From: a virus
Lineage: Duplodnaviria; Heunggongvirae; Uroviricota; Caudoviricetes
Strand: one strand, 5' to 3'
Virus record (IMG/VR): IMGVR_UViG_2663762810_000003
Length of the DNA: 30,320 nt
Part shown: in pieces, positions 1 to 30,320 of the stretch
Layout: each line of letters begins with the position of its first letter
Position numbering within the stretch: position 1 is the first letter of the stretch
The notes under the pieces: generated by a model
Told to the model about the DNA's origin: nothing
The model's database searches: none
What the model saw: only the letters and a program-made list of their open reading frames with translations
Made by a program: the position numbers and the translations under genes

Positions 1-1002
1 TTACCCTCTATTGTCAAAAGGATTCAATTCAACAGCAGCCTCTAAATGACCTGGAGCAAAATGCGCATAACGCATAGTCATTTTTATATCGCTATGCCCC
101 AGTATTTTTTGCAACACAAGAATATTTCCGCCCCGCATCATAAAATGACTGGCAAACGTGTGACGTAGCACATGAGTTAATTGCCCATCAGGAAGCTCGA
201 TCTTCGCTCTCTTAATTGCAGCGTCAAAAGCCTCATAACATGGTGAAAATAGCGCTCCTCGTTTTTTGGGAAGCATAGCCTGCAATTGAGGTGAAATCGG
301 TACAGTGCGGTTCTTCTTTCCTTTAGTTTTAACAAATGTGATTCGACCGGGCAGTACTTGAGATTGCTTTAATCCTTCTGCTTCACTCCACCGAGCACCA
401 GTCGCAAGCCCAATACGGACAACAACCCCCAAATCTTTATTCCGTGACTCATCACACGCAATCAGAAGGCGTTCAATCTCATCTACATACAGAAACGCCA
501 GTTCCTTTTCTTCCTCACGAAACTTGCGAATACCAGTCAGGGGGTTTTCACCAGACCACTCCCCAAGGCGCTTCAGTTCGGCAAAAACAGCATGTAGATA
601 TGACTGCTCGCGATTAACGGTTGCTTCACTAAGTTTTTTCTTCCCCTTGGGATTCCATTCTCCTGATAGCCTTCTTTCCCGATAAGTGGCAAACATATTT
701 TTGTCAAACTGAGAAGCAAATGGATCTCCCAGCCTGGAACAAATCGCCTCAAGTTTGACTTTGCGCTCTGCACCAGAGGACAAGGTTTTACCGTACATCT
801 CAAACCAACGAGCAATCAACTCAGAAAGACGAGGACCAGAACCATCTTGAAACTCGTCTCCAACTCTACTATTCATTAAACGGCGCTCATAAGAGAGCGC
901 CTCACTTTTTGTCGCAAACTGTTTACGAATGCGTTTTCCCGATGCCCCGTAGGGATAACATTCGCAAAGCCATTTACCTGATGGAATCTTACGAACCGAC
1001 AT
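1..1002 (-). CDS. int: P2-family tyrosine integrase
   Basis: 333 aa; C-terminal catalytic signature HVLRHTFASHFMMRGG...LGHSDIKMTMRYAHFAP and N-terminal GKRIRKQF...KSEA match the P2 Int pattern; stop codon is at window position 1-3. Confidence 0.9.
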   Translation of the reverse strand: MSVRKIPSGKWLCECYPYGASGKRIRKQFATKSEALSYERRLMNSRVGDEFQDGSGPRLSELIARWFEMYGKTLSSGAERKVKLEAICSRLGDPFASQFDKNMFATYRERRLSGEWNPKGKKKLSEATVNREQSYLHAVFAELKRLGEWSGENPLTGIRKFREEEKELAFLYVDEIERLLIACDESRNKDLGVVVRIGLATGARWSEAEGLKQSQVLPGRITFVKTKGKKNRTVPISPQLQAMLPKKRGALFSPCYEAFDAAIKRAKIELPDGQLTHVLRHTFASHFMMRGGNILVLQKILGHSDIKMTMRYAHFAPGHLEAAVELNPFDNRG

Positions 1003-1007
1003 TTTAG

Positions 1008-1355
1008 TTACTTATCACATAAATCAAATGCAGCCTTAGTGACATCCCCCAGACTCTTTTTTAACCCTGGGGCGGCATCATTATCTAGCCAAAATGGATT
1101 ATTGTTATCTAACGGTAACGCACCAAATGTTTTACCTTTTATTCGAGCCAAACCTGTAAGTGCATATAACTTATTATCGTCAAAATTCATCACATAAGGA
1201 TTACCATCAAGACACTGTAATTGAACCTCATCAGTATTAAATGGCCATACCCCATTGAAACTCTCACGTTCAATAGTTTTAAAAGGCATTGCGACGGCGG
1301 AAAAAGAAAACATAGATAAAAAAGTAACTAATAGTTGAACCTTTTTTACTTTCAT
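1008..1355 (-). CDS. small secreted/periplasmic protein (signal peptide, two Cys), cargo gene between int and repressor
   Basis: 115 aa; N-terminal hydrophobic signal-like segment LLVTFLSMFSFSAVA; GAGGT Shine-Dalgarno 7 nt upstream; stop is 5 nt from the int start; locally AT-rich. Confidence 0.55.
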   Translation of the reverse strand: MKVKKVQLLVTFLSMFSFSAVAMPFKTIERESFNGVWPFNTDEVQLQCLDGNPYVMNFDDNKLYALTGLARIKGKTFGALPLDNNNPFWLDNDAAPGLKKSLGDVTKAAFDLCDK

Positions 1356-1384
1356 ATCATTACCTCAATTTAGCTCAAGTAAGA

Positions 1385-2035
1385 TTACAAATTAAAAAAC
1401 GCCCTAGAAATGACACCGCCTACCAAAACCCCTACGCAGATAAAGAATATTATTTCTTTTGGATAAAGTCGGATTAATTCTGAAGCACGAAGTCGGACCT
1501 CTGGTAAGGTCGAACTCTCTGTGTGGCTTGATGCCGATTGTTGCTCTAACCACGACAATGCAGACTGTAACTGAGAACGAGTAAGATCGTTTAAACGTCC
1601 TGTACCGAAATTGATATGGCAATACCGCAGAAGTTTTTGTCGAAGTCCACAGTCTTCACTGTTACGTAGTAATAAACTTACAAGAGCCTTACAGGCATCA
1701 TGATCTTTACATCGCTCAAGCATTGCATGCAGAAAACTCTCCGCTGTTTTATATTGATTTACTGTCATATCATCAATACCAGCTACACCAATCTCCGCAT
1801 GTACTTTTTGCCAAATAATAAACGCTTCAGTATTGCTAGCTTCTGCAATAGCAGCAACCAAGCTATTTAGCTCCTTACGCTGAGCCTTAAGCAAAGGGCG
1901 ATCGTCATCATCATTATTCGAAGGGATTGCGATATTGACAGTATGAGAACCATCATATCGCTCTATCTGAATATTCTTTTCGTGAAAATCACGCCCAGCA
2001 ACGCGATTGTTTGAACCGTTTGAGTTGACGGCCAT
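1385..2035 (-). CDS. hypothetical protein with C-terminal transmembrane anchor; N-terminus shares a motif with the repressor C-terminus
   Basis: 216 aa; strong SD (GGAGGTGA) before the ATG; C-terminal hydrophobic segment IIFFICVGVLVGGVISRAFF; N-terminal NGSNNRVAGRDFHE resembles SGGNNRIAGRDYNE at the end of the upstream repressor. Confidence 0.55.
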   Translation of the reverse strand: MAVNSNGSNNRVAGRDFHEKNIQIERYDGSHTVNIAIPSNNDDDDRPLLKAQRKELNSLVAAIAEASNTEAFIIWQKVHAEIGVAGIDDMTVNQYKTAESFLHAMLERCKDHDACKALVSLLLRNSEDCGLRQKLLRYCHINFGTGRLNDLTRSQLQSALSWLEQQSASSHTESSTLPEVRLRASELIRLYPKEIIFFICVGVLVGGVISRAFFNL

Positions 2036-2050
2036 GTCACCTCCCTACTA

Positions 2051-2455
2051 TCACCTACCCTTAGTTTCGTTATAGTCACGACCAGCGATACGGTTATTAC
2101 CACCAGAAATATTTAACTCACGTCCTGATGGCTGAGTTTCCTTTTCACTGATCGCACCTTTTAAAGCCCCAATCACCGCGTTTTTCACATCTAACGAAGC
2201 TGCTCGAAAGCGAGTAATCAACTCCTGCTCATCATCGTTATAAGTTTCAGGTGAGTGAATTCCCAACACAACATACTGAACATCAAGGCCAAAACGAGAC
2301 AGCGCTGCCAAATACGCAGCATCAGGAAAGCTATCTCCTTTCTCATATCTAAGCTGAGTTAGCTTTTTGACTCCACCAATGTCGCTCATGGCAACTTGAC
2401 TAAGTCCCAATCTTTCCCTTTCCTCACGCAACCGCTGACCAATATCATTTTTCAT
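2051..2455 (-). CDS. HTH (XRE/CI-like) immunity repressor
   Basis: 134 aa; N-terminal helix-turn-helix QRLREERERLGLSQVAMSDIGGVKKLTQLRYEKG; divergent from the rightward early operon, as for P2 C / 186 CI. Confidence 0.8.
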   Translation of the reverse strand: MKNDIGQRLREERERLGLSQVAMSDIGGVKKLTQLRYEKGDSFPDAAYLAALSRFGLDVQYVVLGIHSPETYNDDEQELITRFRAASLDVKNAVIGALKGAISEKETQPSGRELNISGGNNRIAGRDYNETKGR

Positions 2456-2464
2456 ACAAAAACC

Positions 2465-2493
2465 TTGACAGGTATCTTTTTTGATACCAAAAT
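2465..2493 (+). promoter_or_regulatory. candidate rightward early promoter (TTGACA, 17-nt spacer, CAAAAT) with embedded perfect palindrome GGTATC-N6-GATACC (2471-2488), a likely repressor operator
   Basis: Read directly in the 75-bp divergent intergenic region between the repressor and the first early gene. Confidence 0.35.
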
Positions 2494-2530
2494 GATTTCA
2501 CGAGCTATTAGATGATCACAATATACCACT

Positions 2531-2737
2531 ATGAAACAAGTTCTTCACGATACCAGATCACGCATTCCGCGTAACACCGCCACAGGTCCAAGACTGGCAC
2601 TTCGGCTGTCCCTCGAGGAGCGAGCCGTCATTGATGAAATGGCAGCTAAAGAACAACGCTCATCCTCTAACATGGCGCGCATGATCTTCCTTCGCGGCCT
2701 AGAGCTAACCCAGAAAGAACAAAACAAATCTTCCTGA
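2531..2737 (+). CDS. small ribbon-helix-helix-like DNA-binding protein, first gene of rightward early operon (Cox/Cro position)
   Basis: 68 aa; LALRLSLEERAVIDEMAAKEQRSSSNMARMIFLRGLE resembles a strand-helix-helix fold; no obvious SD, consistent with a promoter-proximal first gene. Confidence 0.5.
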   Translation: MKQVLHDTRSRIPRNTATGPRLALRLSLEERAVIDEMAAKEQRSSSNMARMIFLRGLELTQKEQNKSS

Positions 2738-2753
2738 TCAGGAGGCTAGTGGG

Positions 2754-2957
2754 ATGTCAGGTATAACCATCAATATCAATGTGAATGCCCCCTATGTATC
2801 CCTGCAGAAATATGCAGAGATAACAGGTATCCCTCTTAATACGTGCAAAAAGATGTTGGCTGACGGTCGAATTATTATCCGCCCCAAACGCGCCAAAATG
2901 GAAAAGCCTGAAGTAAACCTTGTGGCGATGTTAAAAGACGCTTTGGCTAACAGCTAA
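2754..2957 (+). CDS. Cox/Apl-like excisionase-type HTH regulator
   Basis: 67 aa; strong SD AGGAGG; HTH-like VSLQKYAEITGIPLNTCKKMLADGRI. Confidence 0.5.
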   Translation: MSGITININVNAPYVSLQKYAEITGIPLNTCKKMLADGRIIIRPKRAKMEKPEVNLVAMLKDALANS

Positions 2958-2978
2958 AACAATGAACAGAGCACCATC

Positions 2979-3329
2979 ATGAAAAAAAACGCTAATAATC
3001 CATACTCCAAATTTCGTAATGGCGTAGAACGCCATGTACACCACGTCGCTACCAGTGCATCACGTAGTAACAGTCGCTATAACCTGAACGAGACGCACGC
3101 AACACCGGATGGCCACGCTGTAAAACAAATCGGCGAGCATGCCTGGCTGATTGAGAAAGCTGGAATCGTGGTCCACAAATGCCCACGCAATCCGTTTACC
3201 GGAAACCGCATTTTTGCATTGAACTGCGGCGACAATCACTTCGGGCAGGATTTCACATTATACGAAGCACTTCGCACGGTTGATCGTCTGCTTCGCGGGC
3301 AAAGTTTTATTAAACAGGCTGATTTATAA
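2979..3329 (+). CDS. hypothetical early protein
   Basis: 116 aa ORF, co-oriented and tightly packed in the early operon. Confidence 0.45.
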   Translation: MKKNANNPYSKFRNGVERHVHHVATSASRSNSRYNLNETHATPDGHAVKQIGEHAWLIEKAGIVVHKCPRNPFTGNRIFALNCGDNHFGQDFTLYEALRTVDRLLRGQSFIKQADL

Positions 3330-5277: not shown

Positions 5278-5298
5278 GAAACCAGAACATGCACACAC

Positions 5299-5560
5299 AA
5301 AAAAACCGCTTGCCATGCCTCAATCGGTCAGGTTACATTTCCGCTGCACCTCATAAAACGGGTGCCGGGATTCTCAACCCGATACAGAGCAAAGCGCATA
5401 ACCGCGCAAGCGGTTTTTTTGTGCGTACTGTATTGCCACGTCTTTTTCGCGTCAGAATTATGGCGGGGCGTACGGGGCCGACTTCGGTCGGGCCGGATTC
5501 TTTGCTCTCCGGTGTTGAGAACCCTGTACGTCTCGCCACCCCGAGATTCTCAACTCTGGA
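5299..5560. repeat. structured non-coding region: 15-bp perfect inverted repeat (5299-5313 / 5406-5420), imperfect 25-28 bp inverted repeat (5367-5394 / 5500-5524), GATTCTCAAC copies at 5369 and 5545 plus an inverted variant at 5512-5521, and a UUCG-loop hairpin (5476-5494)
   Basis: Read directly in the sequence; no ORF with an SD spans it. Confidence 0.5.
5400..5420 (+). terminator. candidate rho-independent terminator (AACCGC-GCAA-GCGGTT followed by a T run)
   Basis: GNRA-type loop, short stem, seven T; may instead be one arm of the long-range inverted repeat. Confidence 0.4.
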
Positions 5561-5599
5561 TGGTGAGTTATTTCTATCACCGAGCAAAGAGGCCACACC

Positions 5600-5830
5600 A
5601 TGGCAGACCGCAAACAGCACCGCGCTATCGCGGAGCGTCGTCACATCCAGACTGAAATCAACCACAGACTTTCCCGCGCATCACGCGTCGCGCAAATCAT
5701 GCACATCAATATGCTGCATGAGCGCAGCCACGCACTATCAAACATTTATTCCGCCTCTGTTTTCAGCTATCTGGCGGATGATCTGCACGAGCTTCAACAG
5801 CTCATCCAGCAGCAAAACAAACTCCATTAA
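5600..5830 (+). CDS. hypothetical protein (76 aa)
   Basis: SD AGAGG 8 nt upstream of the ATG. Confidence 0.45.
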   Translation: MADRKQHRAIAERRHIQTEINHRLSRASRVAQIMHINMLHERSHALSNIYSASVFSYLADDLHELQQLIQQQNKLH

Positions 5831-5902
5831 TTCCTGTTCCGGGCCTTTCCTGCACCTTGCTGCGGGAGGCCTTCGCACATCTGTAACAAGAGGATTGCCG
5901 CA

Positions 5903-6268
5903 ATGATTCTCGCCAACGACTTTCTTGAATACCTGCTCAACACAGAACGTGATCTTGCCGCTCGCGTGCGTGATCGTTATGACATGTACCTGAAATCCCT
6001 GCCTGTACCGCAGCTCGCTGACGGAAAGATTGTTATTGATGGTCGCTACATGATTGACAGCCACGAGGGAAATTACAGGCTTTACCGCATTGAAGGTGGC
6101 ACCCCGTCCGTTATTGGCATTTACCAGCGCCCATCCTCTGCAATCGTCGATGTGATTGCCGACAGCATCCGCATCACACATCGCCATGCCGACACAGAAG
6201 ACACCGTGCTGGAAATTCAGCGGCTGGCTACAGTCTGCCGCGACACCCTGAATGGCATGACGAAGTAA
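5903..6268 (+). CDS. hypothetical protein immediately upstream of the replication gene
   Basis: 121 aa; SD AGAGGA; co-oriented with gpA. Confidence 0.5.
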   Translation: MILANDFLEYLLNTERDLAARVRDRYDMYLKSLPVPQLADGKIVIDGRYMIDSHEGNYRLYRIEGGTPSVIGIYQRPSSAIVDVIADSIRITHRHADTEDTVLEIQRLATVCRDTLNGMTK

Positions 6269-29317: not shown

Positions 29318-29404
29318 TGGTACCCGGAGCGGGACTTGAACCCGCACAGCGCGAACGCCGAGGGATTTTAAATCCCTTGTGTCTACCGATTCCACCATCC
29401 GGGC
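29318..29404 (-). tRNA. leuZ: tRNA-Leu (anticodon UAA), 87 nt with long variable arm
   Basis: Reverse complement reads GCCCGGATGGTGGAATCGGTAGACACAAGGGATTTAAAATCCCTCGGCGTTCGCGCTGTGCGGGTTCAAGTCCCGCTCCGGGTACCA. Confidence 0.95.
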
Positions 29405-29416
29405 TCGGGAAGAAAG

Positions 29417-29490
29417 TGGAGGCGCGTTCCGGAGTCGAACCGGACTAGACGGATTTGCAATCCGCTACATAACCGCTTTGTTAACGCGCC
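29417..29490 (-). tRNA. cysT: tRNA-Cys (anticodon GCA), 74 nt
   Basis: Reverse complement reads GGCGCGTTAACAAAGCGGTTATGTAGCGGATTGCAAATCCGTCTAGTCCGGTTCGACTCCGGAACGCGCCTCCA. Confidence 0.95.
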
Positions 29491-29544
29491 AAATTCTTCA
29501 GGCCTTTCAGCCAGACATCCGCTTGAGGCCGATGTCTTTTAAAC

Positions 29545-29620
<76 letters not shown>

Positions 29621-29771: not shown

Positions 29772-30320
29772 TCACTGATCAAGCAAATCTGCACGCGCAG
29801 CGCTCAAATATTGCAACATTGACCACAGAGTGAGTACCGCAGCCACAAAGAAAAGTGCAATACCGGCGTACTCAACCCAAATGTTCGGACGCCACAGCAG
29901 CCAGGCCAACGCCACCATCTGGGCAGTGGTTTTCACTTTCCCAATCCAGGAGACAGCCACGCTACTGCGTTTACCCAACTCCGCCATCCATTCGCGTAGC
30001 GCAGAAATAATAATTTCACGGGCAATCATCGTTGCCGCCGGTAAGGTCACCCACCAGCTGTGGTAATGCTCGGTTACCAGCACCATGGCGATAGCCACGA
30101 GAACTTTATCTGCTACAGGGTCAAGGAAAGCACCAAACCGGGTACTCTGGTTCCAGCGGCGTGCCAGAAAACCATCGAACCAGTCAGTCACCGCCGCGAC
30201 GCAGAAAATGAGCGCGGCGGCAAACGGCGACCAGGTGACAGGCAGATAAAAGACCAATACAAAGAATGGGATAAGGATGACACGGAACAGTGTAAGCAAC
30301 GTAGGGATATTAAATTGCAT
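29772..30320 (-). CDS. pgsA: CDP-diacylglycerol--glycerol-3-phosphate 3-phosphatidyltransferase
   Basis: 182 aa recognised as E. coli PgsA ([20 protein letters not shown]...[30 protein letters not shown]); conserved pgsA-glyW-cysT-leuZ synteny; start codon is at the window end. Confidence 0.95.

Follow-up and report, generated by a model that had tools for sequence, protein, structure and literature searches.

In P2, the repressor gene C and the integrase gene int share a leftward transcript that runs opposite a Cox-like early operon. In lambda, the accessory genes rexA and rexB are transcribed together with the repressor gene cI in the lysogen, and in ICEBs1 and many Gram-positive phages the order immR-immA-int joins a repressor, a co-transcribed regulator that acts on the repressor post-translationally, and an integrase. 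The fate of a lysogeny regulator can also be controlled by its own terminal tail: lambda CIII sets the stability of CII by competing with it at FtsH, and the C-terminal tail of the Mu repressor governs its degradation by ClpXP. In this study we analysed a 30,320-nucleotide (nt) stretch of Caudoviricetes DNA (the window; IMG/VR record IMGVR_UViG_2663762810_000003), which judging by its sequence is a P2-like prophage of the Sp13/CP-933T type. Here two genes, encoding proteins of 216 and 115 amino acids (aa), lie between the repressor and integrase genes. We found that the 216-aa protein, a tail-anchored member of the Flk_N family, repeats at its N-terminus the peptide that ends the repressor, and that its gene accompanies repressors of this type in both P2-like and Mu-like phages.

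Like P2, the locus has a leftward repressor gene and int, presumably on one transcript, facing a Cox-like early operon. However, P2 C adjoins int and has no tail, whereas in the window the two genes are separated by a fixed partner gene and a cargo slot. Likewise, the arrangement resembles cI-rexA-rexB, but RexB is a multi-pass membrane protein and RexA is cytoplasmic, whereas the window proteins are predicted to be tail-anchored and secreted and have no sequence likeness to the Rex proteins. Moreover, the Rex proteins share no peptide with CI, unlike the 216-aa protein, which shares one with the repressor tail. ImmA is a soluble zinc metalloprotease (COG2856/M78), whereas the Flk_N protein is membrane-anchored, repeats the repressor tail and has no peptidase match. 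The likeness to the lambda CII/CIII/FtsH case would extend to a second phage protein, placed at the membrane, that competes for the site used by the regulator; however, there is no homology to this system or to Mu/ClpXP, and nothing in the present data points to proteolysis. Flk (Fluke/RflH) of Salmonella and E. coli resembles the 216-aa protein in its helical N-domain (PF27202), its C-terminal tail anchor and its largely cytoplasmic bulk. It is cited as a tail-anchored membrane protein of E. coli (PMC6794478; PMC13344023), and it acts as a membrane-tethered inhibitor that keeps its partner machine in one state (PMC13344023). Unlike the 216-aa protein, Flk is about 330 aa long, has a long Pro/Gln-rich linker and no repressor-like peptide at its N-terminus, and is encoded on the chromosome away from any repressor gene. 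The 115-aa protein resembles YebY of the E. coli yobA-yebZ-yebY operon in its above-cutoff match to DUF2511, its signal peptide and its two conserved cysteines, but it is phage-borne, lacks yobA and yebZ neighbours and is distant in sequence.

The association of the 216-aa gene with the repressor gene was followed in 182 loci with a Flk_N gene, collected in three scans of IMG/VR, in part with profiles seeded from smaller Flk_N groups. In 173 of them the open reading frame (ORF) ending just upstream matched the repressor profile, at a distance of -4 to +32 nt in nearly all pairs. Six loci had a non-repressor ORF in the adjacent position; in these, and in one further locus (L108), a tail-bearing repressor was found further upstream, beyond one inserted gene or a short gap. 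The Flk_N gene follows a repressor of this family, directly or one gene further on, in about 180 of the 182 loci, and in several lineages the start and stop codons of the two genes overlap or are 3 nt apart. Nine loci from other genera of Enterobacterales had the order repressor, Flk_N gene, a differing third gene and integrase; in these the repressor ended in ...SGxGNR[IV]AGRDFNENKK, the spacer was 8-11 nt and the Flk_N protein started with M.VNSTGxxNRxAGRDFNEN. Starting from more distant repressor homologues, we also found the pair in transposable prophages of the Mu-like kind, whose hosts were Pectobacterium, Gilliamella, Pseudomonas aeruginosa and organisms known from metagenomes; in these a divergent transposase (rve) and a MuB-like ATPase (AAA_22) take the place of the integrase found downstream in P2-like loci. 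A tail-less repressor homologue (P0224) of a P2/186-like E. coli prophage was followed by no Flk_N gene, and two unrelated small genes preceded int. When named phages were searched by tblastn with four Flk_N proteins, only the predicted prophage 'Escherichia phage 520873' and one weak Ralstonia match were obtained. An earlier note made from the window alone had counted both inserted genes as cargo; this holds for the 115-aa gene (see below), whereas by gene order the 216-aa gene stays with repressors of this type as a constant partner in different phage groups.

The repressor tail (ISGGNNRIAGRDYNE) and the N-terminus of the 216-aa protein (SNGSNNRVAGRDFHE) are identical at 9 of 15 residues; their coding sequences agree at only 27 of 45 nucleotides, and five of the nine identical residues are specified by different codons. 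The Smith-Waterman score of the two peptides was 62, compared with 29.0±4.6 in 5000 shuffles, the maximum of which was 59. None of the other ORFs of the window contained the shared motif. About six versions of the motif are known, and within each pair the repressor tail matches the N-terminus of its partner. In enteric P2-like phages the tail reads NR[IV]AGRD[FY].E and the partner follows the same pattern (e.g., in an E. coli pair, NNRIAGRDYNE and NNRVAGRDFHE, repressor tail first). The tail and partner peptides are, respectively, VVVQGNNNRTAGRDL and VDVQGERNRVAGRDL in the marine Mu-like type, QQFNGPVGTVTSGDVVN and QQFHGxVEQVAAGDIKN in the Pseudomonas type, IFNGDISGQFAGNQIIN and EFNGTAQGQFSSRDIIN in Pectobacterium, GQIAGGNIY and EQIAGRDIY in Gilliamella, and QTFHGSVGQSVAGSITN..GVTFNV and QDFHGEVGQAAGGDINN.GVNISF in the L186 type. 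The partner encoded by L188 is a 270-aa protein without a Pfam match, whose membrane segment lies about 50 residues from the C-terminus and is thus not a tail anchor; nevertheless, the two peptides match in this locus as well (QVFHGAVSGGVAARDIIN and QEFQGNVDGGVAGRDIVN).

The joint divergence of the two peptides was evaluated in 19 clusters, with Flk_N cores below 55% identity between them. The summed score of the cognate pairs was 981, whereas permuted partners gave 630±63 and none of 20000 permutations reached the cognate value. Most of this signal came from differences between the motif classes. At the codon level, identical residues of the two copies used the same codon in 86 of 186 cases, compared with about 67 expected from pooled codon usage, and synonymous sites were near random. 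On this codon evidence, recent gene conversion was rejected as the cause that keeps the peptide copies alike. The near-random synonymous sites imply that selection acts on the peptide. At the DNA level no repeats or inverted repeats joining the two motif sites were found, and no Rfam family was detected within positions 1-3000. Thus, the motif of about 14 residues that the earlier note had described in the two termini, together with its proposal of divergent codons and peptide-level selection rather than recent duplication, withstood these comparisons, and the motif was present in every homologous pair examined.

The 216-aa protein matched phrog_5825 (function not assigned) at E 4e-103, and PF27202, named Flk_N in gene tables, was precomputed on 119 of its 120 listed homologues; it is therefore assigned to the Flk_N family. 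The NCBIfam model of Flk (PRK10715) matched residues 37-166 at E 8.6e-16. However, the candidate identity with Flk proper failed, as the score was 58 bits against a family cutoff of 353 and the protein has 216 aa compared with 320-420 aa. In a profile search of 1.84 billion representative proteins the Flk_N family comprised 135 clusters only, in three groups. The phage-type members are 185-225 aa long and carry the motif and a C-terminal anchor; true Flk proteins (320-420 aa) begin with MQP... and lack the N-terminal motif; a few clusters have other architectures. A 43-residue N-terminal peptide used as a query of a large protein collection retrieved four fragments only. Residues 1-40 (1916-2035) are the best conserved part of the protein: S5, G7, N10, R11, G14, D16 and E19 were invariant in 24 homologues, and among E. 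coli variants the N-terminal 40 residues were 85-90% identical, compared with 57-68% elsewhere. For the gene as a whole, the ratio of nonsynonymous to synonymous substitution rates (dN/dS) was 0.25-0.30. As side observations, one Flk_N relative of 290 aa (P0282) has two tandem N-terminal copies of the motif (GSKNRTAGRNYYE...NNVAGRDVIH), and several other relatives carry an extension of about 45 residues ahead of it.

In the AlphaFold2 model of the 216-aa protein, run on a 24-sequence alignment, residues 1-45 were disordered, with a predicted local distance difference test (pLDDT) score below 50 for the motif; residues 50-173 were helical, with pLDDT mostly 80-90, and residues 192-215 formed a terminal helix. 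The segment 194-210 had a 17-residue Kyte-Doolittle mean of 2.4, and a hydrophobic C-terminus is kept throughout the Flk_N family. Having one hydrophobic segment, placed at its very C-terminal end, and lacking a signal peptide, the protein has tail-anchored architecture and is predicted to be inserted in the membrane as Flk is. The Flk_N domain possibly consists of two related three-helix units; an internal duplication was weakly suggested (hhalign probability 66%). The model resembled the C-terminal domain of Red-beta (8tfu, solved with the SSB C-terminal peptide) and the NinB, DnaD and ORF6C bundles. The identity to these helical bundles was just 9-19%, and function cannot be transferred to Flk_N from such small folds. 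A sequence search of solved structures returned none for Flk_N. A Pfam scan of the 216-aa protein found no peptidase family or protease motif, and no HExxH was seen by eye.

The repressor matched Pfam HTH_31/HTH_3 and PHROG repressor families. It consists of a helix-turn-helix (residues 5-64), two more helices (74-102) and a disordered tail (103-134), and in its AlphaFold2 model (m149abde76d11) pLDDT was above 90 over the helix-turn-helix and below 50 from residue 103 onwards. The helix-turn-helix and the position of the gene, divergent from the early (cox) operon, identify it as an XRE-family phage repressor. Close homologues keep the tail as [IV]SGxG[NHQ]R[IV]AGRD[FY][NH]E.KK, distant ones have other G/N/Q-rich versions, and Lys-rich stretches close the repressor tails. 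In the window the repressor gene closes with TGA TAG TAG (2036-2053, minus strand), all in frame; after 15 nt the 216-aa gene begins, in the frame of the repressor. In other lineages the spacers of -4 to +32 nt are often no multiple of three, so a read-through fusion of the two proteins is unlikely to be general.

The gene that follows Flk_N varied among the loci. In the 182 loci this third slot was occupied by 30 unrelated families, many of them encoding proteins with a signal peptide, a lipoprotein box or a membrane segment. Two families resembled the candidate defence protein PDC-S48, and one contained a BRCT domain. In the window the slot holds the 115-aa gene, over which the GC content is 35%, compared with 41-46% in the flanks. 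Unrelated genes between conserved flanks and a deviant composition characterise this position as a variable cargo (moron) slot. The 115-aa protein matched Pfam DUF2511 with 28.4 bits (cutoff 21) and aligned to YebY (PDB 7n0j; E 0.003) with both cysteines kept, and inspection and hydropathy located a Sec signal peptide at residues 1-22 (MKVKKVQLLVTFLSMFSFSAVA, followed by MP; nt 1290-1355). On its profile score, cysteines and signal peptide it was assigned to the DUF2511/YebY family. Outside the Sp13 type, the 216-aa and 115-aa genes did not co-occur. The best explanation of these sequence features is that the 115-aa gene is an exchangeable periplasmic cargo, unrelated to the repressor-Flk_N pair, which would ride on the same transcript. 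The copy of this gene in prophage CP-933T of E. coli O157:H7 EDL933 is EDL933_RS14105, the product of which was detected in EDL933 by mass spectrometry and, after ciprofloxacin treatment, was up 1.4-fold at 3 h and down 5.4-fold at 12 h (PMC11125564, S1 table). This detection implies that the distal gene is expressed in the lysogen, and for the 115-aa product it agrees with the suggestion of the earlier note that the products of both genes would be made there. Expression fits read-through from the repressor promoter; an internal promoter is another possible source.

Among other third-slot genes, those of L006 (6647-7513) and L008 (6663-7538), from Enterobacter and Kosakonia prophages, matched PDC-S48, and the L006 gene adds an N-terminal BRCT domain. 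Lying between repressor and int, such genes may be defence genes, a function predicted from the match. In a P2/186-like E. coli prophage with a tail-less repressor (L184, 3357-4132) we observed a 117-aa family that also occurs in the third slot of L080.

We consider it somewhat probable (about 0.55) that the Flk_N protein, tethered to the membrane, modulates the repressor by binding it or by competing with its tail via the shared motif. The leftward operon would then encode, in order, the repressor, the Flk_N protein, a variable cargo protein and the integrase, and the first two would form one functional unit that is co-inherited in P2-like and Mu-like temperate phages. The last 17-20 residues or so of the Flk_N protein would hold it in the inner membrane with the remainder in the cytoplasm, and its free N-terminus would present the same peptide as the free C-terminal tail of the repressor. 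In the monomer model of each protein the motif segment is disordered, and disorder of a segment when alone is expected of short interaction motifs that fold upon binding. The like peptides of the two proteins could pair directly or, alternatively, could compete for one binding site; the best candidate for such a site would be the three-helix units within the Flk_N domain, similar in fold to small bundles that bind peptides and proteins. Made in a fixed ratio with the repressor, the partner could hold, release or buffer it at the membrane and in this way tune immunity and induction. Gene order, the likeness and joint divergence of the peptides, peptide-level selection, the architecture of a tail-anchored protein and the variability of the third slot are observations, whereas we infer a physical contact, its binding site and the direction of the effect, be it sequestration or anti-repression on the one hand or stabilisation or a decoy role on the other.

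Several observations weigh against a modulator of this kind. About six independent motif versions underlie the covariation, and in the large NR.AGRD class other partners often match as well as the cognate one or better. Binding between the repressor and Flk_N is something that we infer from sequence and monomer models, and a consensus scan did not locate the leftward promoter of the repressor operon. In addition, the phage encodes an antirepressor of the conventional kind, together with C4/isrK RNAs. Mitomycin C induces Sp13 although the repressor of this prophage lacks a self-cleavage (peptidase) domain, and the authors of that study left the mechanism open (PMC2669165); the antirepressor alone could explain this induction.

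A more specific version of the modulator is possible but doubtful: Flk_N might be a new membrane-tethered anti-repressor or buffer, produced along with the repressor, in which its own copy of the tail acts as a pseudo-ligand that closes the binding domain, until a signal at the membrane or close to it frees the domain to capture the repressor tail. If this were true, induction or immunity would be coupled to the envelope state in P2-like and Mu-like phages, and, by the same reasoning, peptide binding would be suggested for host Flk as well.

Among the alternatives, the one that survives best, although it is unlikely, is that the shared peptide is a tag for a host machine (e.g., a protease such as FtsH, Lon or ClpXP) and that the membrane protein governs how stable the repressor is, either as a rival substrate or as an adaptor. 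Both copies lie at free, disordered termini, which is the usual position of degrons, the partner is membrane-bound, as is FtsH, and the ends of the repressor tails are rich in lysine. However, a host receptor should keep the motif constant, whereas there are about six versions, which change jointly within pairs. Pectobacterium, a single host genus, has two of them. This multiplicity favours a phage-encoded receptor over a host one.

We regard it as rather improbable that both genes are lysogen-expressed accessories that protect the host by superinfection exclusion or abortive infection, as RexAB of lambda does, with the motif linking the system to the repressor. Such a role would suit two genes within the repressor operon and a third-slot protein that is made in the lysogen, as well as the resemblance of other third-slot occupants to the candidate defence proteins (PDC-S48, BRCT). 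Moreover, a 2026 survey described the int-primase interval as a minor defence hotspot of P2-like phages (PMC13586616); a term search of that survey yielded neither Flk_N nor a link to a phage repressor. On the other hand, PADLOC gave no match for either inserted protein, the two genes are not found together outside the Sp13 type, and the architecture of the 216-aa protein is unlike that of RexA or RexB. The 216-aa gene also equals the repressor in conservation and is never exchanged. The parallel with rexA/rexB that the earlier note had drawn can therefore be kept for the operon layout, whereas matches, architecture and inheritance give no tie to the Rex proteins themselves.

There is little to recommend the idea that the Flk_N protein is a phage copy of Flk acting on the flagellar export gate, where it would change motility or block flagellum-dependent phages, with the motif serving self-association only. 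The homology to the cytoplasmic N-domain of Flk and the same tail anchor are in its favour, and Flk, acting from the membrane, is an inhibitor of the flagellar secretion switch (PMC13344023). But the match falls far short of the Flk cutoff, the long linker of Flk is missing, true Flk lacks the motif, and the strict coupling to a repressor with the same peptide would be left unexplained. The same low likelihood applies to the peptide being an independent self-association element, for repressor oligomerisation on DNA and for clustering of the membrane protein, without cross-talk between them: its G/N/Q-rich, strand-like pattern suits like-with-like pairing, but independent use would not keep the copies alike over about six divergent versions, and a self-pairing motif would also pair across the two proteins. 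Finally, a chance likeness or a functionless relic of local duplication, conceivable for a match of only about 15 residues, can practically be dismissed, since no shuffle reached the observed score, the motif is kept in every pair examined and lies in the best conserved part of the 216-aa protein, and synonymous sites are near random.

The features of the locus are collected in Table 1. On the minus strand the spacers are 15 nt between the repressor and 216-aa genes, 29 nt between the 216-aa and 115-aa genes and 5 nt between the 115-aa and integrase genes, and no terminator-like site was found on this strand within positions 1-3000. The sequence GAGG precedes the ATG of the 115-aa gene. The genes are packed so tightly that a terminator would not fit between them. 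The description in the earlier note of two co-oriented ORFs, the first with a strong Shine-Dalgarno sequence and a C-terminal membrane anchor and the second with a Shine-Dalgarno sequence, a signal peptide and a stop 5 nt from int, was accurate.

Table 1. Positions of the repressor-integrase locus and its elements in the window.
Feature	Position	Strand	Basis or remark
Tyrosine integrase, 333 aa, terminal gene of presumed lysogenic operon	1-1002	-	Pfam Int_N and Phage_integrase
Secreted DUF2511/YebY-like protein, 115 aa (secretion predicted)	1008-1355	-	Pfam DUF2511, PDB 7n0j
Tail-anchored Flk_N-domain protein, 216 aa (anchoring predicted)	1385-2035	-	ORF calls, phrog_5825, NCBIfam, PF27202
C-terminal transmembrane anchor of 216-aa protein, residues 194-210, EIIFFICVGVLVGGVIS; 6 residues after	1406-1456	-	hydropathy, AlphaFold2 helix
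Helical Flk_N domain, about residues 46-175	1511-1900	-	
N-terminal copy of shared peptide, 216-aa protein residues 5-19, SNGSNNRVAGRDFHE	1979-2023	-	
Shine-Dalgarno sequence GGGAGG of 216-aa gene	2040-2045	-	sequence reading; within the 15-nt spacer, 4 nt before ATG
XRE-family helix-turn-helix repressor, 134 aa	2051-2455	-	ORF calls, Pfam, PHROG
C-terminal copy of shared peptide, repressor residues 116-130, ISGGNNRIAGRDYNE	2066-2110	-	
Promoter-like site TTGACA-17-CAAAAT, toward early genes	2465-2493	+	consensus scan, 10/12 matches
Arc-like early gene, facing away from repressor	2531-2737	+	PHROG name
Cox-like early gene, facing away from repressor	2754-2957	+	PHROG name

Prophage Sp13 of E. 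coli O157:H7 Sakai, the counterpart of CP-933T of EDL933, matches the segment with 99.7% identity, and its four genes are annotated as integrase, hypothetical protein, membrane protein and phage repressor protein. A match to the segment was present in 521 of 5426 complete E. coli genomes, and in 504 of these at least 80% of its length was covered. In the phage collection the sole record with the segment was the Peduoviridae entry 'Escherichia phage 520873' (L001, NC_049344.1), in which the Flk_N gene has no annotation, its match is broken into three pieces (2459-3065) and the integrase is split into two coding sequences; frameshift errors or decay of the record probably account for these broken genes. 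At the right side of the window, three tRNA genes (29321-29620, minus strand) are followed by a 182-aa ORF (29772-30320, minus strand) that resembles the pgsA-type gene flanking the P2-like prophage L184. This suggests that the right end of the prophage is near 29.2 kb and that the final kilobase is host DNA.

Rfam models of isrK (63 bits) and C4 antisense RNA (78.5 bits) matched positions 5346-5543 on the plus strand, at the start of a 205-aa ORF (5289-5906) whose Sakai homologue is annotated as an antirepressor. By sequence, this is an arrangement like c4/ant of P1 immI within a P2-like prophage, and it may be the route of the reported induction of Sp13 by mitomycin C. In CP-933T of EDL933 (L190, 43190-43420) a gene for a 'derepression protein' stands in the corresponding place of the early region. 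Thus, judging from gene content, the induction modules differ between otherwise near-identical prophages.

In the literature we found no functional study of ECs2618-2620, of CP-933T or of Flk in connection with phage. Repressors with a co-transcribed regulator (immR-immA-int) and fate-deciding repressor tails (Mu Rep, lambda CII/CIII) are already known; a tail-anchored partner that repeats the tail of the repressor and is conserved in P2-like and Mu-like phages appears to be undescribed, as no description was found in the literature or in named phages. Telling a fixed regulatory gene apart from a cargo slot is relevant to surveys in which all genes between repressor and int are counted as accessory or defence genes. 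Lysis-lysogeny switches are textbook subjects, yet a repressor class that roughly one complete E. coli genome in ten carries, O157:H7 among them, has a fixed membrane-bound partner that seems to have gone undescribed. The co-evolving terminal peptide offers a directly testable handle on this partnership and may reveal a route from the state of the membrane to prophage induction.

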